From positions 1-64,000 of the forward strand of contig JASTWF010000760.1 in NCBI GenBank assembly GCA_030390025.1: a stretch of 64,000 nt of DNA. Reading direction: 5' to 3'. Positions 33,001-63,532 of the stretch are shown here, one piece after another (the first letter of the stretch is position 1; each line of letters begins with the position of its first letter). The notes beneath the pieces are model-generated. The model had not been told where the DNA came from. It saw nothing but the letters and a program-made list of their open reading frames with translations, and searched no databases. Source of the stretch: Squalus acanthias. Taxonomy: Eukaryota. Both the position numbers and the translations under genes were made by a program.

Positions 33001-34130
33001 TCACCATGTTCAGGTTTGTGAACTCTCTCCGTGCTCTGTATCACTGTGTGTCTGTAATCCCCACCATGTTCAGGTTTGTGAACTCTCTCCGTGCTCTGTA
33101 TCACTGTGTGTCTGTAATCCTCACCATGTTCAGGTTTGTGAACTCTCTCCGTGCTCTGTATCACTGTGTGTCTGTAATCCCCACCATGTTCAGGTTTGTG
33201 AACTCTCTCCGTGCTCTGTATCACTGTGTGTCTGTAATCCCCACCATGTTCAGGTTTGTGAACTCTCTCCGTGCTCTGTATCACTGTGTGTCTGTAATCC
33301 CCACCATGTTCAGGTTTGTGAACTCTCTCCGTGCTCTGTATCACTGTGTGTCTGTAATCCTCACCATGTTCAGGTTTGTGAACTCTCTCCGTGCTCTGTA
33401 TCACTGTGTGTCTGTAATCCCCACCATGTTCAGGTTTGTGAACTCTCTCCGTGCTCTGTATCACTGTGTGTCTGTAATCCTCACCATGTTCAGGTTTGTG
33501 AACTCTCTCCGTGCTCTGTATCACTGTGTGTCTGTAATCCTCACCATGTTCAGGTTTGTGAACTCTCTCCGTGCTCTGTATCACTGTGTGTCTGTAATCC
33601 CCACCATGTTCAGGTTTGTGAACTCTCTCCGTGCTCTCTATCACTGTGTGTCTGTAATCCCCACCATGTTCAGGTTTGTGAACTCTCTCCGTGCTCTGTA
33701 TCACTGTGTGTCTGTAATCCTCACCATGTTCAGGTTTGTGAACTCTCTCCGTGCTCTGTATCACTGTGTGTCTGTAATCCTCACCATGTTCAGGTTTGTG
33801 AACTCTCTCCGTGCTCTGTATCACTGTGTGTCTGTAATCCTCACCATGTTCAGGTTTGTGAACTCTCTCCGTGCTCTGTATCACTGTGTGTCTGTAATCC
33901 CACCATGTTCAGGTTTGTGAACTCTCTCCGTGCTCTGTATCACTGTGTGTCTGTAATCCCCACCATGTTCAGTTTTGTGAACTCTCTCCGTGCTCTGTAT
34001 CACTGTGTGTCTGTAATCCTCACTATGTTCAGGTTTGTGAACTCTCTCCGTGCTCTGTATCACTGTGTGTCTGTAATCCCCACCATGTACAGGTTTTTGT
34101 ACGGCTCTCTCCGTGCTCTGTATCACTGTG
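1..34130 (-). repeat. 60-bp tandem satellite (~570 copies, extends beyond left edge) derived from a V-gene recombination signal sequence
   Basis: Plus-strand unit GTAATCCCCACCATGTTCAGGTTTGTGAACTCTCTCCGTGCTCTGTATCACTGTGTGTCT repeats continuously. On the minus strand it reads CACAGTG-ATACAGAGCACGGAGAGAGTTC-ACAAACCTG-AACATGGTGGGGATTACAGACA. The terminal unit is the authentic RSS of the V at 34131-34433. Confidence 0.97.
34092..34130 (-). promoter_or_regulatory. Consensus 23-RSS of supporting V-delta
   Basis: Minus strand CACAGTG (34124-34130), 23-nt spacer (34101-34123) and ACAAAAACC (34092-34100); both motifs are perfect. Confidence 0.97.
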
Positions 34131-34433
34131 CTGTGCGCGGACTCAGTGCACAGTAATACACAGCGGAGTCACTCAGTTGCAGTTTCGCGATGTTTAACCG
34201 GCTGATTTTCTGCGCCCCATCGGCAGAAGCAGAAATTCGGCCCCCATCAGCGTTTTCTTTATTCCCCTCTCCTGAAGTGTTTCTCTGAAGCAGGTATTTC
34301 GGAGCCTGCCCTGGGGACTGACGGTACCAGTGTACTGTCAGACAGAACCCTGAATATTCGCAGTTTAAAGTAACGGTGTCACCGGCAGCAGAGGATTGTA
34401 GAGGCGGACCCTGGGACATCGAGAAACTGGAAT
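34131..34433 (-). CDS. TCR delta V exon, NAR-TCR supporting type (no leader found, CDR1 Cys)
   Basis: V-set motifs TLNC...WYRQ...DSAVYYCALS. Phase-1 acceptor CCTGCAG|AT at 34434. Extra Cys in CDR1 (SGFCLT, codon 34342-34344). No convincing leader exon upstream, and it lies downstream of a NAR-TCR J donor, as in the established NAR-TCR cassette. Confidence 0.88.
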
Positions 34434-38616: not shown

Positions 38617-38949
38617 CGGCTGTGACAGTCACCACTGTCCCGGATCCATCCACAGTATCATGGTGTTCCTTCCGGTACGAGTACTCAGCTTTACAGTAAT
38701 AGGTGGCGCTGTCTTCAACTCGCACATCCCGAATTTCCAACGAAAATATCTTGTCTGCCTTATTAGTCGACACAACAAATCGCTCTCCGCTCGAGATCCG
38801 CTCCCGCTCTGTCCCGGTCCGGGTTTGTCTGAAGAAATCCCCACGCGTTAAAGAACGGGCGCAAAAACCACCATCGAAAACACAGGTGATGGTGAGAGAC
38901 TGACACTCCTCCCTGGTCACCACTAGCGGGGTCTGTGTCACTGAAGAGC
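38617..38949 (-). CDS. NAR-TCR (IgNAR-like) V domain exon with V, D and J already joined in frame
   Basis: Single exon from acceptor TTTCCAG|GC to donor GCCG|GTAAGT encoding VTQTPLVVTREECQSLTITC...EDSATYYCKAEYSYRKEHHDTVDGSGTVVTVTA. VNAR-like short CDR2 region. No RSS or intervening DNA between V and J. Confidence 0.9.
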
Positions 38950-39094: not shown

Positions 39095-39137
39095 AGGGTA
39101 AACAGACACACAGGATGAAAACAAGGAGGGTTGCCAT
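39095..39137 (-). pseudogene. Leader exon of the joined NAR-TCR V, with destroyed splice donor
   Basis: ATG at 39137 encodes MATLLVFILCVCLP. The paralog has CCCT|GTGAGT, but here it reads CCCTGAGT (2-nt loss), giving no phase-1 donor and an in-frame TGA. Confidence 0.75.
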
Positions 39138-44443: not shown

Positions 44444-44501
44444 CGGCTGTGACAGTCACCACCGTCCCGGATCCATCCACATATTCAGTCTGTACATCCA
44501 C
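44444..44501 (-). CDS. NAR-TCR J segment (unrearranged)
   Basis: Encodes VDVQTEYVDGSGTVVTVTA with phase-1 donor G|GTAAGT; preceded by a 23-RSS. Confidence 0.92.
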
Positions 44502-44540
44502 CACAGTGACACCGCTCTCAGTCACCCCGGTACAAGAACC
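44502..44540 (+). promoter_or_regulatory. 23-RSS of NAR-TCR J
   Basis: CACAGTG (44502-44508), 23 nt, ACAAGAACC (44532-44540). Confidence 0.93.
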
Positions 44541-44856
44541 ACCGACACCTCAATCTGCCGGCCACACATCACCAGACAGTCGGCGCTGCCCAATTATTCC
44601 AGGGATCAATAAACAATATTCCGTGTTCCACAGTCCCCGTCGGTTCAAACTGTTGTTTGTGAGACTCTGAGCTCTCAGTAAAATGGCTCAGGAACACGGG
44701 CCGGAGATGGACGCTTCATATAAACGGAGAAAATATCAAAGAAAGATAACTGAAAGCAGGAAATGACAATTAAATTAAACCACAGTACAGCGATAATAAG
44801 ATCAAACCTACAATTCAGGTTCCGGGCCCGGGGAATTTATATTTTAATTGTACACA

Positions 44857-44884
44857 GGAATTTGCTCAGGTCTCATCCACTGTG
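44857..44884 (-). promoter_or_regulatory. 12-RSS at the 3' end of NAR-TCR V(D)
   Basis: Minus CACAGTG (44878-44884), 12 nt, GCAAATTCC (44857-44865). No plausible nonamer at 23 nt. It is 12/23-compatible with the J RSS facing it. Confidence 0.8.
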
Positions 44885-45166
44885 AGGTTCCAATTAACTG
44901 GTACCCGGCTTTACAGTAATAGGTGGCGCTGTCTTCAACTCGCACATCCCGAATTTCCAGGAAAAACGCTTTTTCTGCTTCATTCGTCCTCACAACAAAT
45001 CGCTCTCCGCTCAAGATCCTCTCCCACTCTGTCCCGGTCTGGGTTTGTCTGAAGAAATATCCATTTGAGAAATGAGAACCATAGAAAAAGCAGGTGATGG
45101 TGAGAGACTGACACTCCTCCCTGTTCACCGCTGGCGGGGTCTGTGTCACTGACTGACTGAAAGAGC
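44885..45166 (-). CDS. NAR-TCR (IgNAR-like) V exon, probably V-D pre-joined
   Basis: Acceptor TTTCCAG|GC; SVTQTPPAVNREECQSLTITC...EDSATYYCKAGYQLIGT; unusually long 3' end followed by a 12-RSS. Confidence 0.88.
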
Positions 45167-45312
45167 CTGGAAATTAAACAGAGAGAGTTTAATGGGCCAT
45201 CAGAGCCGAACCACACAACGGGGCTAAAACCCAGACAGTGTCCGCAATTCGATGGACCCGGGCAGCTTTATATTAAATCCACACAATGTCGGTTTGTTTG
45301 ATCGGTACTCAC

Positions 45313-45355
45313 AGGGTAAACAGACACACAGTGTGAAAACAAGGAGGATTCCCAT
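45313..45355 (-). CDS. Leader exon of NAR-TCR V copy B (intact)
   Basis: ATG at 45355, MGILLVFTLCVCLP, phase-1 donor T|GTGAGT in frame with the V exon. Confidence 0.9.
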
Positions 45356-53082: not shown

Positions 53083-53122
53083 GGTTTTTGTACGGGATCC
53101 GCTTTCTCTCTGCAGCAGTGTG
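53083..53122 (-). promoter_or_regulatory. V RSS (24-nt spacer)
   Basis: Minus CACACTG (53116-53122), 24 nt, ACAAAAACC (53083-53091). Confidence 0.85.
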
Positions 53123-53597
53123 GGGCTCATGGCACAGAAATACACGGCGGTGTCGGAGATCAGGGCGTTGCTGATCGTTAGCTCGGTAATCTTACTGGTT
53201 TTATTAAACGAAGATATGAATCGATCAGTAAAGTCGGGGTTCCTGGTTACTATTCCTGCAATAATATAAACCACGTACTGTAGAGGCTGCCCGGGGTGCT
53301 GACTGCACCAGAACACATAAAGGTTAGTAGCGCTTGTTTTCAAGGTGCAGGTTAGTGTGACATTACTTTCCTCTTCAGCCGTCATTTCGGGAACCAGCTG
53401 TTCCGCTGCGTCTTGGAGGCTCCATTCTAATATAAAATAATAGCAATAGTCATCATCACTTTATCATCTTCATCATCATTTTACCAATAATATCAGCTGG
53501 GTTACAGCAGTCAGGGGGAGAATGGGATTTCACCGGGAAGGAAATACTTACTGAGAAGTGATATAATGACGAGGAGCGGTGCGAGTCGGTTCCGCAT
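53123..53597 (-). CDS. TCR alpha/delta V gene segment (leader 53552-53597, V exon 53123-53426)
   Basis: Leader MRNRLAPLLVIISLL with A|GTAAGT; acceptor TTAG|AA; TLTC...FWCSQ...DTAVYFCAMS; in frame; RSS present. Confidence 0.9.
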
Positions 53598-54209
53598 GAT
53601 GCTCCGAGTCTGTAACACAGCAGTCTGGGAAATCCTCTGTCGGAGCAGAAATGCAGATCCCCGCCCCACTGCACTGCTGATCCAACCAATGCCAAAGCGG
53701 AAACAGGGGCAGAAATCTCTCCAATAACACAGGGCAGGCAAGGCGGGTCAGAGCGCGAGCAGCAAACGGAAGCTGTGGGCGGGGCTGCCGCGGGCAGTGT
53801 TGTCACACGGGATCCACCTGTAAGGAGCTGAATTCAATAATAATGTCCCGTTCGGAAATTATACAACTCTGCCTCTGTAGAAGGGCTGCGTTACTTTCAC
53901 ATTCAATACAAATTCGGGACAAGCAGATCGGCGAAAGGAATTGCAGAATTAATATATTATGCGATTGTTACCAAAGGCTTCAACAGTGAAGTGGGTTAAA
54001 ACCAGTGGCTGAAACTAGCGGTGGGAAATAGAAAAAAGGTGTAAGGAAATTATAAAATTAATGAGCAGAAATCTGAAATGAAAAGGAATTTCACCTTAAT
54101 TAATATTGAGAAATATAATTGCGGATTGACCACCGCCCTTTGCCTGAACTGGTCGATTTCGGGACCGATTTGACTGTCACCCAATCGACCAAGTCTTTGT
54201 TCAGAGAGG

Positions 54210-54248
54210 AGATATTGTAGGAGAGCGGGGCCTTTCACCCACACTGTG
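54210..54248 (-). promoter_or_regulatory. 23-RSS
   Basis: Minus CACAGTG (54242-54248), 23 nt, ACAATATCT (54210-54218). Confidence 0.85.
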
Positions 54249-54522
54249 GCCACGGCACAGTAATAGATTCCGGTATCCGCCAACTCTGCCTGGCCGATGC
54301 CGAGTGCGCTCAGACTTTGATCCCGGTCGGTGTGGATCTTAAACCGGCCTTGGTGGCGCTCTCCTTTGAATCCACAATGGATGTTTCTCGGGGCCTCGCT
54401 CACCAGTCGGCTGTACCAACAGGTGTTGTCTGTGGTGCTGAACCCGCACTGGATCCTGACGGGGTTTCCTTCCACAGCGAACTCTCGGGCAGGCTGAGAA
54501 ATCTGGGCCAAACTCGGAGCAT
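54249..54522 (-). CDS. Divergent TCR alpha/delta V exon with two extra cysteines; leader not identified
   Basis: Acceptor CCAAAG|AT; VRIQC...TCWYSR...IHCG...ADTGIYYCAV; open frame and 23-RSS. Confidence 0.82.
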
Positions 54523-55258
54523 CTTTGGACACAATTTAAGAATTACACAGAATGTACAGCACAGAAACAGGTCACTCGTCCCAACTAGTCTATACCTGTC
54601 ATTATGCTGCACACGAGCCTCCTCCCAACCCCATTGACATTGAGTACAGCAGTTTATAGAGCAGAATTAATAAAACCAGATGGGTAATAAGAGCAGGAAG
54701 CGGTGCATATCACCCGTGGCTGATTTATACTGTTTACTCAAGGCTCCGTCTCACTTTGCATTGAAGCTGGACGTGAAGATTGGAGGCTGCAACTTGCCCA
54801 GACTCCATGAGACCGCGCTCTCTGCTTCTGTATTACTTCAAAGCGACCCCGGCAATAGTACAGGAGACAGGAGACATCGCGATAGAAGGCCACGCTTTGT
54901 CACGTCAGTTTCGCTGTCAGTCATACGAGATCTGCTAGAGTCAATATTAGTGAGAGTCTCACATCTTCTGCTTCAGGGCAAACTCGATCGGTCATCAATA
55001 TATCGATTACTTTGGCTGGCTCCCGTAATCATAACGATCACATTAGACCTGTTATATTTCTCTGAGCAAACTGTTCACTTAGTCCAATTCTTCTCCTCTT
55101 TCACTGTACACGTGAGTTTCTTTTTCACATATTAACCTATTAACATTTTAAACGTTATTATGGATTAGGCTTCCTCGCTGCTTTTGTTTGGGAATTTCAT
55201 GTCCCAACAATCCTCTGGGTCAAAAAAGAACCTCCGTTCTCATGGTAGGGATCGTAGC

Positions 55259-55460
55259 ACTGAGTACTGTAATACAACGAGACACCAGCAGAGGGAGATA
55301 GATAAAAGTATGACTGAGTACAGCGATACAGAGAGACACCATCAGAGGGAGATAGATAAAGGTGTGACTGACCACAGTGATACAGAGAGACACCATCAGA
55401 GGGAGAGAGATAAAGGTGTGACTGAGTACATTAATACACAGGGACAGCAACAGAGACAGT
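55259..55460. repeat. ~54-bp degenerate tandem repeat (~3.5 copies)
   Basis: Unit ACTGAGTACAGCGATACAGAGAGACACCATCAGAGGGAGATAGATAAAGGTGTG. Confidence 0.75.
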
Positions 55461-55476
55461 GAGATAAATTTGTGCG

Positions 55477-55980
55477 AAACACTGAGTGTGGGCGGCCCGG
55501 TGTGAGCTCAGAGACAGTGTGAGCTGGTGTCAGTGAGAAACACTGAGTGTGAGCGGCCCGGTGTGGGCTCAGAGACAGTGTGAGCTGGTGTCAGTGAGAA
55601 ACACTGAGTGTGGGCGGCCCGGTGTGAGCTGAGAGACAGTGTGAGCTGGTGTCAGTGAGAAACACTGAGTGTGTGCGGCCCGGTGTGAGCTCAGAGACAG
55701 TGTGAGCTGGTGTCAGTGAGAAACACTGACAGTGGGCGGCCCGGTGTGAGCTCAGAGACAGTGTGAGCTGGTGTCAGTGAGAAACACTGAGTGTGTGCGG
55801 CCCGGTGTGAGCTCAGAGACAGTGTGAGCTGGTGTCAGTGAGAAACACTGAGTGTGAGCGACCCGCAGTGAGCTCAGAGACAGTGTGAGCTGGTGTCAGT
55901 GAGAAACACTGAGTGTGAGCGACCCGCAGTGAGCTCAGAGACAGTTTGAGCCGGTGTCAGTGAGACACTGAGTGTGGGCA
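55477..55980. repeat. 61-bp tandem repeat (~8 copies)
   Basis: Unit AAACACTGAGTGTGGGCGGCCCGGTGTGAGCTCAGAGACAGTGTGAGCTGGTGTCAGTGAG. Confidence 0.92.
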
Positions 55981-56163
55981 GCACGAGTTGAGTAAACCCC
56001 GAGATGCAGCTTGTTTTGTTTATTCGCCAGGGAGAAGCCTCTGAGTTGAACATGAATCGGAGTTTGGCTCCTTGTTAAGTACCCTGAATATATTACCCGT
56101 GTCCTGGTTCTAACCCGACCTCTGTGTACATTTCTTTCAGCCTCCTTTTCATCTGATCGGATA

Positions 56164-56497
56164 ATGCTTCGGATTTGCAGAGTTTCCCTGCTGATTTACA
56201 CTCTGATCTGCACGGATGTAAGCGGTGAGGATGAGGTGGAGCAGCTCCCTCGGCGGGTGGTTGTTGGTGAAGAGGGAATCGTGTCCATCAACTGCACCAC
56301 GACCTTTGTGTTTAGCGTCCTGCGCTGGTACAGACAGCACCCGGATCAGACCCTCCAGCACCTGGTGATGGCCACAAGCGGGGTCGATCAACACGGGAGG
56401 ATCACTGCTTCAATCGGGGGAGGCAATAAACTCAGTGCCCTGACTGTGAGAGACGCGCGAGTGACAGACAGCGCCAGCTATCTCTGCGCCGTGAGCC
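56164..56497 (+). CDS. TCR alpha/delta V gene segment with leader and V in one exon
   Basis: Continuous ORF MLRICRVSLLIYTLICTDVSG-EDEVEQ...SINC...WYRQ...DSASYLCAVS followed directly by a 23-RSS. Confidence 0.9.
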
Positions 56498-56536
56498 CAC
56501 AGTGTAACAAACAGGCGGAGAGTCCGCACAGATACC
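56498..56536 (+). promoter_or_regulatory. 23-RSS
   Basis: CACAGTG (56498-56504), 23 nt, ACAGATACC (56528-56536). Confidence 0.88.
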
Positions 56537-57070
56537 TGCCCCGAGGGGCAGCGCCGCTCTGCTGTGTTTGGAATAACGGGATTGGGACGGGCCCAGTTAT
56601 AATAATCGGAGGACAGAGGGAATGAGCACAGAACAATGATGATATATTGAAGAGAGATATTTAAAGAAAGTGAGAAATGAAGAGAATTGGGAACATAGAC
56701 AGAGGAAAAGAAAGAGAAAGCCCCAAAGAAAGAATGAGAGAGAGAAAGAGAAAAAGCAGGGTAATAATGAGAGTGTAGAGGACAGCAAATTAGGAGAGGA
56801 GGAAAAGAGAAATGAAAGAAGTTGAGAAATAACGAGTGAGAAACACAAAGCTAAAAGGTAAGAGAAAGCCATAAAGAAAGAGATTCAGAAATAAAGTAAA
56901 ATGTCCTTTCCTTTAAATTCACTCACATTTCCCTTCCCCCTATTTACAAAGCTGAATTGTCTGAAACAATACACATTGTCTCCCAATAACAGACCTCTGG
57001 AAACTGCCCCATCGATAAACTCACACTTTATTCTATCCATTTTCCCGACAGTGTAAAATTCTCAGAGTCA

Positions 57071-57085
57071 CCGGCAGAGGGCGCC
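57071..57085 (+). promoter_or_regulatory. CTCF-binding-like motif upstream of V promoter
   Basis: CCGGCAGAGGGCGCC. Confidence 0.55.
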
Positions 57086-57347
57086 GTGGTCACATGTTTC
57101 TCGCCGTTATCAACTGGAAATTATAGAGACATTTCTTGCGGTAACACTGCCTGCGCCAGCCCCGCCCACAGCTTCCGTTTGCTGCTCTCGCTCTGACCCG
57201 CCTTGCCTGCCCTGTGTTATTGGAGAGATTGCTGTGCTGTTCCCTGTTTGGCATTGGTTGGATCAGCAGTGCAGTGGGGCGGTGGTCTGTATTTCTGCTT
57301 CGACAGAGGATTTCCCGGACTGCAGAGTTACAGACTCAGGGAGCGTC

Positions 57348-57857
57348 ATGTGGACCCGTCTCACTCCGCTCCTCATCATTTTTTCACTTCTCAGTAAGTA
57401 TTTCCTCCCCAGTAAACATTCATTCTCCCCGTGACTGCTGGAGCCCAGGTGTTATTGTTGCTAAAATGATGATGATTATGTTGCTAGAGATGACATTGAT
57501 GGTGTTGGTGGTGGTGATGATGATGATGACTATTACTATTATTTTATTTTAGAATGGAGCCACCAAGACACAGTGGAACAGCCGGTCCCTGAAAAGACGG
57601 TTGAAGAGGAAAGTACTGTCACACTAACCTGCACCTTGAAAACAAGCGATACTAACCCTTATGTGTACTGGTACAGTCAGCACCCCGGGAAGCCTCCACA
57701 GTACGTGCTTCGACTTATCGGAGGGAATGTGAACCGGAACCCCGACGTTACTGACCGATTCAATCCTACGTTTAATAAAACTACCAAAATTACTGAGCTA
57801 ACGATCGGCAAAGCCCTGATCTCCGACACCGCCGTGTATTTCTGTGCCATGGGAGCC
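57348..57857 (+). CDS. TCR alpha/delta V gene segment (leader 57348-57393, V exon 57553-57857); inverted paralog of 53123-53597
   Basis: Leader MWTRLTPLLIIFSLL with A|GTAAGT; acceptor TTAG|AA; TLTC...YWYSQ...DTAVYFCAMG; in frame. Confidence 0.92.
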
Positions 57858-57897
57858 CACACTGCTGCAGAGATATAGCGGATCCCGTACAAAAACC
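57858..57897 (+). promoter_or_regulatory. V RSS (24-nt spacer)
   Basis: CACACTG (57858-57864), 24 nt, ACAAAAACC (57889-57897). Confidence 0.85.
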
Positions 57898-57921
57898 CAC
57901 ACTGAGAGTTCCAGTTGGTGC

Positions 57922-57935
57922 TCACCAGAGGGCGC
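57922..57935 (+). promoter_or_regulatory. CTCF-binding-like motif ~24 bp downstream of V RSS
   Basis: TCACCAGAGGGCGC. Confidence 0.65.
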
Positions 57936-58199
57936 TCTCACACCGATATACAAGCGATAATTCAGCCTCCACAGCGAGAGTCACAAGGAGCTTCTAAAAA
58001 GGGAGAGAAAGCAGAACACTCCACAAGTCACCGCTTCTCGTTTTGTCTTAATTCTTGAAGACAGCGTCTGAGTGACAGAATCACCATGATTCAGATCTGA
58101 AAAAAACATGTTCAAACAGGAAAAGGACAGACCAGCGAGTGTTTAAAATTCAGATTTATACGATGTTGGAAATTAGAGACAAGATGAAATATGTGGTGA

Positions 58200-58530
58200 T
58201 CCACCATCATCATCACCATTTCACCAACAATAACACCTGGGTTACAGCAGTCAGGGGGAGAATGGCTGTCTACTGGGGAGGAAATACTTACTGAGAAGTG
58301 ATATAGTGATGAGGCGCGATGCGAAACGGTTCCACAAGATGCTCCCTGAGTCTGTAACTCTGCAGTCCGGGAAATCTACTTTCGCAGCAGAAATACAGAT
58401 CCCCGCCCCACTGCACTGCTGATCCAACCAATGCCAAACAGGGAACAGCGGCAGCAATCTCTCCAATAACACAGGGCAGACAAGGCGGGTCAGAGCGAGA
58501 GCAGCAAACGGAAGTTGTGGGCGGGGCTGA
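58200..58530 (-). pseudogene. Orphan promoter plus leader exon (58292-58337) of the 53k/57k V family, no V exon
   Basis: Homologous to 53470-53790. Start codon is TTG instead of ATG and the donor GTAAGT is retained. Homology stops within the intron. Confidence 0.8.
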
Positions 58531-58799
58531 TGAAGAGGGAGTGAGAAGAAGGAAATAGTCGCCTGGTGCTCACTTTCTCTCGCAATGACCACTTTCTCTG
58601 AAGTGGAATGATGAAGGGGATGGGCACAGGAGCTATTTTAAGTAGCAGCGTGTCCCAGTGCCCGACTGCAATGACTCCAAGAGAAGTATCAGCATTAAAT
58701 CCGAACCCGCAATATTACTTTAAACTGAGCTGTGGAAGTAGAAGCTGGGGACACGGGGTCAATGTATAAAAGCTCATTTTAGGGCGGGCACCAGGAAAT

Positions 58800-58970
58800 T
58801 CTTCACACACACACAGAGTGATTAATGTGTGGAATACACTTCTGCATAGAGTGGCCGAGGGAAATACCCTGGAATCGTTTAAGGAAAAGTTTGAGGCTGC
58901 AGTGAGGGGCGGGAGTTAGGATCTCTCTGGATGGATGAGACAAGATAAGCCGAATGGCCTCCCTCATTCT
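58800..58970 (+). mobile_element. Old CR1-type 3' fragment
   Basis: Degenerate TTCTTCACAC..AGAGTGATTAATGTGTGGAAT...AGCCGAATGGCCTCCCTC. Confidence 0.5.
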
Positions 58971-59028
58971 CAGTGATCTGGTGAACTGCAACACGGCGGG
59001 ATTTGTAGCTTGTAGTTACAGGTAGTCG

Positions 59029-59042
59029 CCACCAGAGGGCAG
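59029..59042 (+). promoter_or_regulatory. CTCF-binding-like motif
   Basis: CCACCAGAGGGCAG, essentially the consensus core. Confidence 0.65.
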
Positions 59043-59949
59043 TGGGCGGATGTGTTCACTGTTGGTTTCAGTGTGAGGGCGAGTTACAGACGGACAACAC
59101 CGTTCAGTTCCGTTATTTAATAAAGAGATTCAGAAGTAAAGGCATTAATTTCAAATGGAAGCATTGTTTTATTTTTAACATTATTGTGAATTATTAATGT
59201 ATTATTAATGACATGTTGCAAATATTTTAATGACCAACTCACCGTGGTATCACTGAGCCTAGCCGCTGCTCGCATCCTCCCATTCTGCTCAAACATGTCA
59301 GTCATTCCCCATTTCATTCATATAACAGGTGGCGTTTGTACAATTTACCGTATCGTTGTGTTCAAGTCCCTCAGGACCTGCTGGCCGTCTATATTCCTGT
59401 TTATATCAGCAGTGGGTAGATCTGATGATTAGTGAGCAGCTCTTTTAATCGGAGCCTCCGGCACTGATACCAGAACAACATTAACTCGTTCCCTTTACTG
59501 CCCCCATCGCACAGATTGCACCTGTTTAGTGAATTTAGATCCCATTGCATCTGAAAACAGAATGTGGACAAGTTGCTGCGCAAACAATATGAGATTAATG
59601 ATTTGATCCGTTCAGGGACCTGCACTTATCAGGTAAAGACAGCAGCAAGTAGATCGCACCGAGTGAATGGGGCTGTGCTGATTGTGTCCAGGAAGAGAAG
59701 TGTGAAAGGACAAATATACAACCCGTGACTCAGGGATGGGCGGGTGCAGCTTGTCACATGATCCTCAGGGATTGTCTGATTGGTTGGGAAACCTTTTGGC
59801 ACATTGTTGAGAGACGGAATGAATCCAATTCTAGAAGAGTTTACATCGAGTCTGTTCCTCATTCATCTCAAACAATTTACAACTGAATATATATAAATAA
59901 CGTCCACAAGATAAGAATCATTGTGTGCCAGTCTGTGGTTATTCCGGTA

Positions 59950-60340
59950 TGTGTGTCTGTGTGTGTTTGAGTGTGTGTCTATCTGTGTTTGTGTGTTTCT
60001 GTGTGTGTGCGTGTGTGTGTGTGCGTGTGTATGTATGAGTGTGTGTCTGGTTGCGTGTTTGCGTGTGTGTGAATGTGTGTCTAGGTGCGTGTTTGGGTGT
60101 GTAAGAGTGTCTGCGTATGTGTGTGTTTGAGTGTGTGTGCGCTTCAGTGTACGAATGTGTGTGTGTCTATGTATGTGTGTCTTTGTGTGCATTTGAGTGT
60201 GTGTGTGTTTGAGTGTGCGCGTGTTTCAGTGTATGAATGTGTGCATGTCTGTGTGTGTGTTTGAGTGTGCCTGTGCTTGTGTGTGTGCTTTGAGTGTGTG
60301 TGTGTGTTTGAGTGTGCGTGTGTCTGTGTGTGGGTGTCTG
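59950..60340. repeat. Degenerate (TG)n-rich simple repeat
   Basis: Interrupted TG dinucleotide tracts. Confidence 0.9.
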
Positions 60341-60430
60341 TGGTCATGTGCTTGTTTCCAGTACTCTGTGTGAGGCTTGTACTTGACGCAGGAGTGCGCT
60401 CTCTGATCACTTGTTAAATAGCTTACATTT

Positions 60431-62508
60431 CAACATAAGAACCTAAGACGTAGGAGCAGGAGTAGTTCATTTGGCCCCTCGGGCCTGCTCCGCCATTCAA
60501 TAAGATCATGGCTGATCTGATTTTGGCCTCAACTCCACTTCCCTGCCCGTTCTCCGTAACTCTTGACTCCCTTATCGTTCAAACATCTGTCTATCTCCAC
60601 CTTAAATATATTCAATGACCCTGCCGCCACAGCTCTCTGGGGTAGAGAATTCCACAGATTCACGACCCTCTGGAAGAAGAAATTCCTCCTCATTTCCGAT
60701 TTAAAAGGGGCTCCCCTTATTCTGAAATTATGCCCCCTAATTCTAGATTCCCCCACGAGGCGAAACATCCTCTCTGCATCTACCGTGTCAAGCCACTTCA
60801 GAATCTTACATGATTCAATAAGATCCCCTCTCATTCTTCTAAACTCCAATTAGTATAGGCCGAACCTGCTCAACCTTTCTTCATAAGACAACCCCTTCAT
60901 CTCCGGAATCAACCTCGTGAACCTTCTCTGAACTGCCTCCAATGCAAGTATATCCTTCCTTAAATAAGGAGACCAAAACTGTACACAGTACTTCAGGTGT
61001 GGTCTCACCAGCGCCCTGTACAGTTGTAACAGGACTTCCCTACTTTTATACTCCATTCCCTTTGCAATAAAGGCCAACACTCCATTTGCCTTCCTAATTG
61101 CTTGCTTACCTGCACGCTAACTTTTTGTGATTCATGTAGAAGGACCTCCAGATCCCACTGTACTTCAGAATTTTGTAATCTCTCCCCATTTAAATAATAA
61201 TTTGCTTTTATATTTTCCTACCAAGGTGGATAACCTCGCATTGTCCCACATTAAACTCCATCTGCCAGATTTTTGCCCATTCACTTAGCCTATCTATATC
61301 GCTTTGGAGATTATTTGCGTCCTCCAGAAAATTTGCTTTCCCACCTATCTTTGTATCATCAGCAAATTTGGCTACATTACACTCAGTACCTCTATCCCAG
61401 TAATTAATACAGATTGTAAATAGTTGAGGCCCAAGCACCGATCCCTGCGGCACACCACTAGTTACAGTTTGCCAACCTGAAAATGACCCACTTATCCCGA
61501 CTCTCGGTTTTCTGTTAGTTAGCCAATCCTCTATCCATGCTAATATATTACCCCCATCCCCGTGAGCTCTTATCTTGTGTAGCACCTTTTATGTGGCACC
61601 TTATCGAATGCCTCCTGGAAATCCAAATACACGACATCTACTGGTTCCCCTTTATCCACCTTGCTCGTTATATCCTCAAAGAACTCCAGCAAATTTGTAA
61701 AACATGATTTCCCTTTCATAAAACCATGCTGACTCTGTTTGACTATATTATGATTTTCCACATGTCCTGCTATCACTTCTTTAATGATGGACTCCAGCAT
61801 TTTCCCAATGACAGATGTTAGGCTAACTGGTCGATAGTTGCCTGCTTTCTGTCTCCCTCATTTCTTAAATAGGGGCATTACATTTGCGGTTTTCCAGTCC
61901 GCTGAGACCTCTCCAGAATCCAGGGAATTTTGGTAGATTACAACCAATGCATCCACTATCTCTGCCCCCACCTCTTTTAAGACTCTAGGGTGCAGGTCAT
62001 CGGGTCCAGGGGACTTGTCCACCTTTAGTCCCATTAGTTTGCCTAGTACTTTCTCTCTAGTGATAGCGGTTGTTTTATGTTCTCCCTCCATCCAATAGCC
62101 CATTGATTGTCCATTATTGGAATGCTTTTAATGTATTCTACCGTGAAGACCCATACAAACTGTTTGTTCAAAGTCTCTGCCATTTCCCTGTTTCCCATTA
62201 TTAATTCCCCAGACTCATCCTCTAGGGGACCAACGTTTACTTTAGCTACTCTCTTTCTTTTTTATATACCTGTAGAAGCTCTTACTGTCTGTTTTTATAT
62301 TTCTTGCTATTATACTCTCATAAGCTATCTTCTCTCTCTTTAACCTTTCTTTTTTAGTCGTACTTTGTTGGTTTTTAAAAATTTCCCAATCCCCTGGCCT
62401 TTCACTATTCTTCGCAACATTGTATGCTTTGTTTTCAATTTGATACGATCCTTTACTTCCTCAGTTAGCCACGGATGGTTCATTCTTCTCTTAGAGTCTT
62501 TCTTTCTC
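60431..62508 (-). mobile_element. 5'-truncated, frameshifted CR1 LINE (RT region and 3' end)
   Basis: Minus ORF pieces KSPGPDDLHPRVLKE, SQHGFMKGKSC, YLDFQEAFDKVPH, PQGSVLGP, FADDTK, WNSLPQ. Confidence 0.93.
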
Positions 62509-62710
62509 AAGCAAAGTACAACTGAACATACGTCAATAACCTCCACAGATATCAAAAATTCTGTGTATTTTTATTAATGTTGGCGTGTGTGTATGTCATT
62601 TCATTCATATTCTTAAGATTGCAACTATTAATGGGACACAGTGACTGCAGGAATTTCTTCACTTTTCACCTTAATGCGAGAGCGACAGAGATACAATGAG
62701 AGGAAAAGAC

Positions 62711-62712
<2 letters not shown>

Positions 62713-62787
<75 letters not shown>
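62713..62787. repeat. (TA)n(GA)n compound microsatellite
   Basis: Directly visible. Confidence 0.95.
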
Positions 62788-62791
<4 letters not shown>

Positions 62792-63055
62792 GTTAAATAG
62801 ACATATATAGAGCGAGACAATGCCACAAACAGACAGGCAAGGAAAGAGTTTAGAGAGATCCTGCAGTAATTGGACACAATTAACACTCATTGGTGCAAAA
62901 CTGAAGACAGTTCTGAGAGACCAGCCAATCCTGTCCCTGGGAGACGCCCTCAGTTTCTCAATAAGTGAAGCCTGCCCCTGATCTGGGTGTAATCTTTAAT
63001 ATCACACATGTTTAGAAATTTGTGTTATTTTCTGTCGAACTCTAAACCAGACACC

Positions 63056-63493
63056 ATGTGCTCCCCATGTTCATTATTGATAATAATGGTCGTGCTGCCC
63101 GGTGAGTCCATGTTTAAATGGCCAGTGTGTGTTCCATGGGTTGTATTCACTCACAGGCTTTTCACATATTTTGTATTTTGTTACAGGAACGAGTGGCGAA
63201 GATTCAGTTTCTCAGGATCCGCCAGAATTAACGTCTCAGGAAGGACAGACCATAATACTGAACTGTAGTTACTCGGCAGAGTACGGTGGCTCAACTCTCT
63301 TCTGGTACATCCAGTACCCCGGGGAAGCTCCGATATATTTACTGAAGAGATACGGCAAGGGGCAGGGGGTAAGGTCTCCAGATACCCCAGACCGATTCTC
63401 TGCTGATTTGGACCAAGACAAGAAAACGGTTCCTTTAATCGTCTCCGGGGCTCTTGTCTCTGACTCTGCCGTGTATTTCTGTGCGCTGAGCCC
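63056..63493 (+). CDS. TCR alpha/delta V gene segment (leader 63056-63101, V exon 63187-63493)
   Basis: Leader MCSPCSLLIIMVVLP with G|GTGAGT; acceptor TTACAG|GA; EDSVSQ...ILNC...FWYIQYPGEAP...DSAVYFCALS; in frame. Confidence 0.94.
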
Positions 63494-63532
63494 CACACTG
63501 TTACAGGGGCGCAGTCACTCCGTACAAAAACA
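63494..63532 (+). promoter_or_regulatory. 23-RSS
   Basis: CACACTG (63494-63500), 23 nt, ACAAAAACA (63524-63532). Confidence 0.9.

Follow-up and report, generated by a model that had tools for sequence, protein, structure and literature searches.

A germline-joined NAR-TCR VDJ exon of Squalus acanthias, candidate fixed middle domain of a TCR-delta chain

The window, a stretch of 64,000 nucleotides of Squalus acanthias DNA, contains on its reverse strand a NAR-TCR exon in which V, D and J are already fused into one open frame. NAR-TCR is reportedly the doubly rearranging TCR-delta of cartilaginous fish, credited to Criscitiello in 2006. Judged from the sequence, the joined exon is almost certainly real and inherited, the product of a germline join made by RAG. 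The whole explanation that we favour, namely that this inherited, RAG-made exon was copied with its cassette and serves most likely as a fixed middle domain, is held at a little under even confidence. The exon and its parts lie as follows.

38617..38949, reverse strand: germline-joined NAR-TCR VDJ exon, 333 nt, open frame, with intact acceptor and GTAAGT donor, a Pfam V-set match and a VNAR fold
38675..38686, reverse strand: V 3' end in the junction, 11/12 nt like the germline V ends of L014/L016, its RSS gone
38662..38674, reverse strand: stretch of 13 nt matching neither V nor J, with a D match of at most 4-5 nt; likely non-templated additions, with germline coding ends that vary in the NAR family
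38617..38661, reverse strand: J segment, 5' trimming of 3-12 nt relative to the J of L018/L012/L013 type
38861..38863, reverse strand: CDR1 cysteine, specific to the five copies with the shared junction and aligned with the CDR1 cysteine of the supporting V-delta
38903..38905, reverse strand: a-b loop cysteine, hallmark of NAR-TCR V

From FR1 to its GTAAGT donor the exon is a single open frame of phase 1-1, with the canonical J donor at 38617/38616 and an intron present on either side (the leader intron and the J-downstream intron). The CDR3 reads in frame and uninterrupted, YYCKA-EYSYRKEHHDT-VDGSGTVVTVTA, and the window sequence holds no RSS inside the junction. The first-pass annotation had described a contiguous in-frame VDJ that arose at the DNA level and not as a retrocopy, and both statements are borne out, a retrocopy origin being ruled out by the presence of both introns. 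Its claim that the leader intron is retained holds for the intron itself but not for the splice donor, which was destroyed by a 2-nt deletion. The domain has REECQ, with the a-b loop cysteine, and FFRQ, which lacks the canonical WYRK tryptophan, as in the NAR-TCR V description excerpted from PMC1845163. Its top PDB sequence matches are VNARs (E 2.6e-21), as are the best fold matches of its predicted structure (pLDDT 94.9; TM 0.90 to 2ywy), and among named proteins it comes closest to shark gene models, with at most 77% identity. Because it undergoes no somatic V-D-J rearrangement and has no RSS, the joined exon is a variant of the NAR-TCR V family, not a typical member.

The junction is made of about 12 nt resembling a germline V end, 13 nt that are unassigned (4-5 of them could be D) and a trimmed J. 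Between copies sharing it the unassignable nucleotides number 9-13, with more in L006, a gene joined differently. Measured against Js of the same 5' type, 3, 9 or 12 nt are missing (L018, L012 and L013, respectively). A J about 20 nt shorter, as reported earlier, is correct relative to the window paralog but overstates the trimming, because the paralog J is a different 5' variant. The absence of the paralog's RSS-containing DNA of about 380 bp is confirmed, as a 383-bp RSS-bounded stretch (44502-44884). The paralog does not represent the unrearranged state, since its V ends in D-like sequence followed by a 12-RSS and is itself VD-joined. The join lies at RSS borders, shows coding-end processing, keeps its introns and has kin that are still split, as expected of a germline-joined receptor. 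Such an anatomy is that of a RAG coding joint, with probable N additions, although the family is highly variable in its germline V, D and J ends. In the germ line of an ancestor, RAG would have cut and joined a NAR V, D and J with trimming and non-templated additions, and the joined exon would then have been copied along with the whole cassette by duplication. For shark Ig, RAG-type joining in germ cells is established in the excerpts of PMC2193156 and PMC4279169, with little sign of TdT in the NS4 joins (Lee 2000, PMC2193156).

Several observations bear on inheritance. A 26-nt pattern of the junction is found at exactly five loci in the assembly, in both orientations, the reversed control giving 0 matches. 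Among these five copies the junction differs by one base, the exons by up to 13/327 nt and the 3' flanks by up to 30 of ~390 nt (~7%). In the tree they fall on one side of a 100/99 branch, opposite the other joined types and nested among unjoined Vs, two of which, both frameshifted, are their nearest neighbours. A single join with later duplications explains the shared junction, the diverged flanks and the tree, which a lymphocyte clone cannot. All five partner V-deltas are unrearranged, and limited data argue against hypermutation at NAR-TCR (excerpts of PMC5931798). The window locus may be a divergent haplotype of the L002 cassette (96.7% over 5.8 kb). That the locus on the large contig was simply assembled twice was considered and is not supported, since the neighbouring paralog finds no match above 92% on that contig.

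Contigs spanning the junction were obtained from two of the four runs compared, namely a 115-nt contig over 38625-38739 in run X1 (organism A) and a 108-nt contig over 38632-38739 in run X3 (organism B, a separate study), each with 2 differences; A or B may be the window's own species, and the tissue is unstated. Runs X2 (about 55% read) and X8 gave no junction-bridging contig among the matches listed. The check suggested by the first-pass annotation, whether reads of further individuals have the same junction, came out positive as far as the X1 and X3 contigs go, and its claim of a fixed CDR3 encoded in the germline is supported by the five diverged genomic copies, by the junction in 2/4 runs and by the unrearranged supporting V-delta. 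The refutation that it had named, a somatic T-cell allele captured by the assembly, did not hold because five diverged loci, in both orientations, and contigs of two organism labels carry the junction; although the assembly may derive from any tissue and none of the public runs contains half of the window's words, a somatic allele or an assembly artefact caught in the reference is extremely improbable.

The joined exon belongs to a large family. Assembly-wide, we counted 23 exact NAR J matches and 29 V matches, most of them in the 6.0-10.3 Mb interval of a single contig. The J-bearing units comprise 12 unrearranged, 5 VD-joined (three junction types) and 6 VDJ-joined ones, which brings the partly or fully joined cassettes to 11/23. 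Unrearranged cassettes are organized as V-22/23RSS, 12-D-12 and 23-J, with four RSSs over ~785 bp. The VD-joined ones, at window positions 44857-45355 and in L022-L025, have three different junctions and, since they already carry the V-D fusion, need only one somatic join. Five of the six VDJ-joined units share the window junction; the sixth, the solo gene L006 (G000:C29:9032190-9032801), has another one, an in-frame VDJ with a clear D remnant, a G-rich insert and an intact leader, without the CDR1 cysteine and with no upstream NAR in the stretch examined around it. Throughout L007-L021, nearly every cassette has its own length and sequence at the 3' end of the germline V, in the D core and at the 5' end of the J, while the RSSs are conserved, and the V-side RSS spacer is 22 nt in most unrearranged cassettes; either RAG cutting and resealing in the germ line or selection acting on CDR3 may lie behind this variety of coding ends. 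At L016 (G000:C29:7697983 region) the V-D-J cassette looks intact and no supporting V-delta match was found, and at L007 (G000:C559:133610-134950) a frameshifted V and a D abut the 3' end of a supporting V-delta, the J being deleted. The family also includes pseudogene Vs.

The neighbours of the joined exon in the window suggest how it may be used.

44885..45355, reverse strand: leader and V of the upstream NAR, with VD joined in the germline and an open frame
44857..44884, reverse strand: 12-RSS behind the fused VD, part of the upstream NAR cassette
44502..44540, forward strand: 23-RSS of the upstream J, in the same upstream NAR cassette
44444..44501, reverse strand: upstream NAR J, with a phase-1 donor in phase with the acceptor of the joined exon 5.5 kb downstream
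34131..34433, reverse strand: supporting TCR-delta V, with CDR1 cysteine, open frame, unrearranged, phase-1 acceptor, 4.2 kb downstream of the joined exon
34092..34130, reverse strand: perfect 23-RSS of the supporting V-delta, read in the window sequence

Wherever NAR pairs occur in tandem, the joined exon is the second of the two (5/5), preceded by a rearranging NAR and followed by the supporting V-delta. Phase 1 is common to the upstream J donor, the joined exon and the V-delta acceptor, and the splice sites and phase of the exon are compatible with internal splicing as a supporting domain; an in-phase downstream supporting V-delta with a CDR1 cysteine is also what characterizes a NAR-TCR V. 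In the five copies the exon measures 333 or 342 nt, with acceptor, donor and frame intact in 5/5 and an in-frame 9 nt as the only indel. All five shared-junction copies have the CDR1 cysteine, versus 0/21 other NAR Vs examined (cysteine, leader and tree counts use 26/29 Vs, the degenerate Vs L027-L029 being left out). By BLASTP, the GFC of its CDR1 aligns with the GFC of the supporting V-delta, whose CDR1 cysteine is the putative partner of the NAR a-b loop cysteine, the interdomain disulphide of NAR-TCR being itself only putative in the excerpts of PMC1845163. The CDR3 of the joined exon has no cysteine, and a second CDR1 cysteine is present in L004/L005. The CDR1 cysteine codon appears to be kept in X1 and X3, as deduced from the one difference per contig over CDR1, which lies at another site.

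Two more observations concern the surroundings. Window positions 1-34130 contain a 60-bp satellite built from the RSS and flank of the supporting V-delta, in which 498 heptamer-plus-spacer copies include a perfect 23-RSS in 1 only; similar arrays lie behind other supporting V-deltas. At 53100-63500, there are at least 4 more TCR-like V segments in both orientations, three of them with 23/24-spacer RSS matches.

Public NAR Vs have the CDR1 cysteine in 2/53 cases, one of them in a tandem NAR-NAR-Vdelta gene model from Heterodontus. This model (XP_067869961.1) and XP_041031384.1 from Carcharodon are automatic models chaining NAR-NAR-Vdelta; the former has the CDR1 cysteine in the second domain and repeats an identical CDR3, and the latter is without the cysteine. 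The CDR3 of the joined exon was found in none of 55 public protein matches. We rejected RefSeq V-J-Vdelta models as proof of germline joins because several automatic models read through RSS heptamers.

In the arrangement that we propose, a transcript from the upstream promoter would meet the joined exon as a complete internal exon. The T cell would rearrange both the V(D)J of the upstream NAR and the supporting V-delta, and the spliced product is predicted to run from the leader through a variable NAR, a fixed NAR and V-delta DJ to C. In this chain, the a-b cysteine of the upstream domain would bond the CDR1 cysteine of the fixed domain, whose own a-b cysteine would bond the CDR1 cysteine of V-delta. 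That the joined exon is spliced in as the fixed middle domain of a three-V TCR-delta chain is a tentative reading, to which we give somewhat less than an even chance. Of the two roles that the first-pass annotation had offered for the fixed CDR3, the structural loop would fit the tandem position and the CDR1 cysteine better than an innate-like specificity. Position and cysteine each count as a single event, because the five copies are one lineage, and the change from Tyr to Cys, being one transition, weighs against the middle domain. With its features coming from one event, two other roles, a decaying relic and a fixed tip, therefore stay close rivals, and middle-domain use and the fixed tip are not mutually exclusive. 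Three presumed-RNA runs and one DNA run compared with the 10-kb tandem cassette gave matches dominated by SINE/LINE, and TCR-delta D, J and C were not located among the 150/836 candidates scored.

Both rivals draw on the state of the leader region.

39095..39137, reverse strand: leader exon of the joined gene, its splice donor destroyed by a 2-nt deletion, with an in-frame TGA; common to L002
39258..40569, forward strand: 5'-truncated LINE of 1.3 kb, with an RT fragment, a 7-bp target duplication and a microsatellite tail, 120 bp upstream of the ATG

Both the window copy and L002 have lost the leader donor, which the other 24/26 V loci examined retain. The LINE insertion above the ATG of the window copy is likewise common to L002, and a TATA-like box remains. 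Since the donor is lost and the LINE fragment lies 120 bp upstream, stand-alone use of the window copy is doubtful; it is probably unable to make a secretory-pathway chain from its own start or to act as a stand-alone fixed tip. The functional leader of its own that a NAR-TCR V has is thus missing in the window copy and L002, and kept in L003-L005. A charged residue sits in the leader core of 2/5 shared-junction copies, one of which has also lost the donor; in L005, it is an Asp.

An unlikely, though not negligible, reading is that of a neutral relic: RAG would have made the join by accident in the germ line, cassette duplications would have passed it on, and the exon, skipped or never expressed, would now be decaying. 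The broken leader and LINE insertion of the window copy would agree with this, as would the pseudogene Vs of the family and the frequency of germ-line joining, with 2 junction types for VDJ and at least 3 for VD in 23 cassettes. The joined exon shows weak or unclear selection: comparison of the two subfamilies gives a pN/pS of ~0.5-1 (small counts), not clearly below 1, the window copy and L002 are separated by 5 amino-acid changes and 0 silent ones, and the window copy has 4 private amino-acid changes and no silent one. Against decay, frame, acceptor and donor are intact in 5/5 with a sole in-frame exon indel (9 nt), organisms A and B still have the junction and, as deduced from the difference counts, the CDR1 cysteine, and one would expect splicing to include so strong an internal exon.

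Comparably unlikely is a fixed antigen-binding tip, in which the joined gene, with its own promoter and leader, would form the invariant, innate-like tip of a two-V NAR-TCR early in life and the window copy would be a dead member. Three copies, L003-L005, retain the leader donor and the upstream region, so stand-alone use is possible for them. The innate-like specificity of the first-pass annotation may accordingly be kept for leader-intact copies, and is unlikely for the window copy, with its broken donor and upstream region. The near invariance of the CDR3 in the five copies and in the contigs of organisms A and B, the separate solo gene L006 without an upstream NAR in the stretch examined, and the expression early in life of germline-joined shark Ig (PMC2193156, PMC4279169, in excerpt) are also in keeping with such a tip. 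The missing donor of the window copy and L002 and the Asp in the L005 leader core speak against it. Because the CDR3 has no cysteine, the CDR1 cysteine would stay unpaired at a tip, yet the second CDR1 cysteine of L004/L005 could pair with it.

The fixed middle domain can be set beside several known systems, as they appear in the excerpted sources. NAR-TCR (PMC1845163, PMC5931798, PMC12227049) has the same a-b loop cysteine, absence of the WYRK tryptophan, V-D-J cassette and downstream V-delta with a CDR1 cysteine, but is described with two independently rearranging domains, whereas here the exon is pre-joined, takes second place in a tandem pair and has acquired a CDR1 cysteine. Type II/III IgNAR V pairs CDR1 and CDR3 cysteines and is followed by IgNAR constant exons; the joined exon has no CDR3 cysteine, and its next exon is a TCR V-delta. 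Marsupial TCR-mu Vmuj (PMC7615758, PMC2275272, PMC3457774) is another invariant V joined in the germline; it sits between a rearranging V-D-J and the remainder of the chain, in a structural role like the one proposed for the shark exon. Vmuj is VH-derived, without a leader intron (retrotransposition has been proposed) and the second of two Vs, whereas the shark exon is NAR-type, retains its intron and would come second among three; being neither VH-derived nor intron-less, it resembles Vmuj in its proposed working only. Germline-joined shark Ig (NS4 light chains, IgM1gj and type III IgNAR; PMC2193156, PMC4279169, PMC4622739) shares the RAG-type germ-cell join in a cluster, the retained introns, the repeated independent events and the coexistence of VD-J and VDJ forms; it is Ig and not TCR, and NS4 shows little sign of TdT, versus 9-13 unassignable nt here. 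The pre-joined leaderless TRD V-J of Pleurodeles waltl (PMC12698447) is likewise a germline-joined TCR-delta V without its own leader, and the newt gene uses the leader of a neighbour and is expressed; unlike the shark exon, it is a conventional V-J with no D, in a single V domain and on one haplotype. Finally, channel catfish TCR alpha/beta (PMC6170632) includes rearranged V(D)J with a leader intron in oocyte and erythrocyte DNA. That evidence is PCR-based, with many CDR3s and a proposed transposition from T cells, whereas the shark join lies in place in its cassette.

Germline-joined TCR V genes have thus been reported in marsupial TCR-mu, newt TRD and, by PCR, catfish, and the excerpt of PMC7615758 names TCR-mu as the only TCR with a germline-joined V. 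We found neither a germline-joined nor a three-V NAR-TCR in the open-access literature, within a scope that lies outside the founding NAR-TCR paper and the key review and that covers the three-V case by exact phrase only. The sequences indicate that V(D)J joining in the germ line extends to the shark TCR-delta locus, and does so repeatedly (11/23 cassettes), with introns intact. More speculatively, and rather doubtfully, there may exist a three-V, four-Ig-domain shark TCR-delta chain, in which the joined NAR exon was co-opted as an invariant spacer, gained a supporting-type CDR1 cysteine and shed its leader in some copies; its stack of variable NAR, fixed NAR and V-delta, laddered by disulphides, would repeat marsupial Vmuj one storey higher, maybe with an independent origin in Heterodontus. 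The joined exon offers an in-place RAG route to a type of exon that marsupials are thought to have obtained by retrotransposition. If it is spliced internally, the TCR chain would have three V domains and provide a natural model for the origin of the supporting domain.
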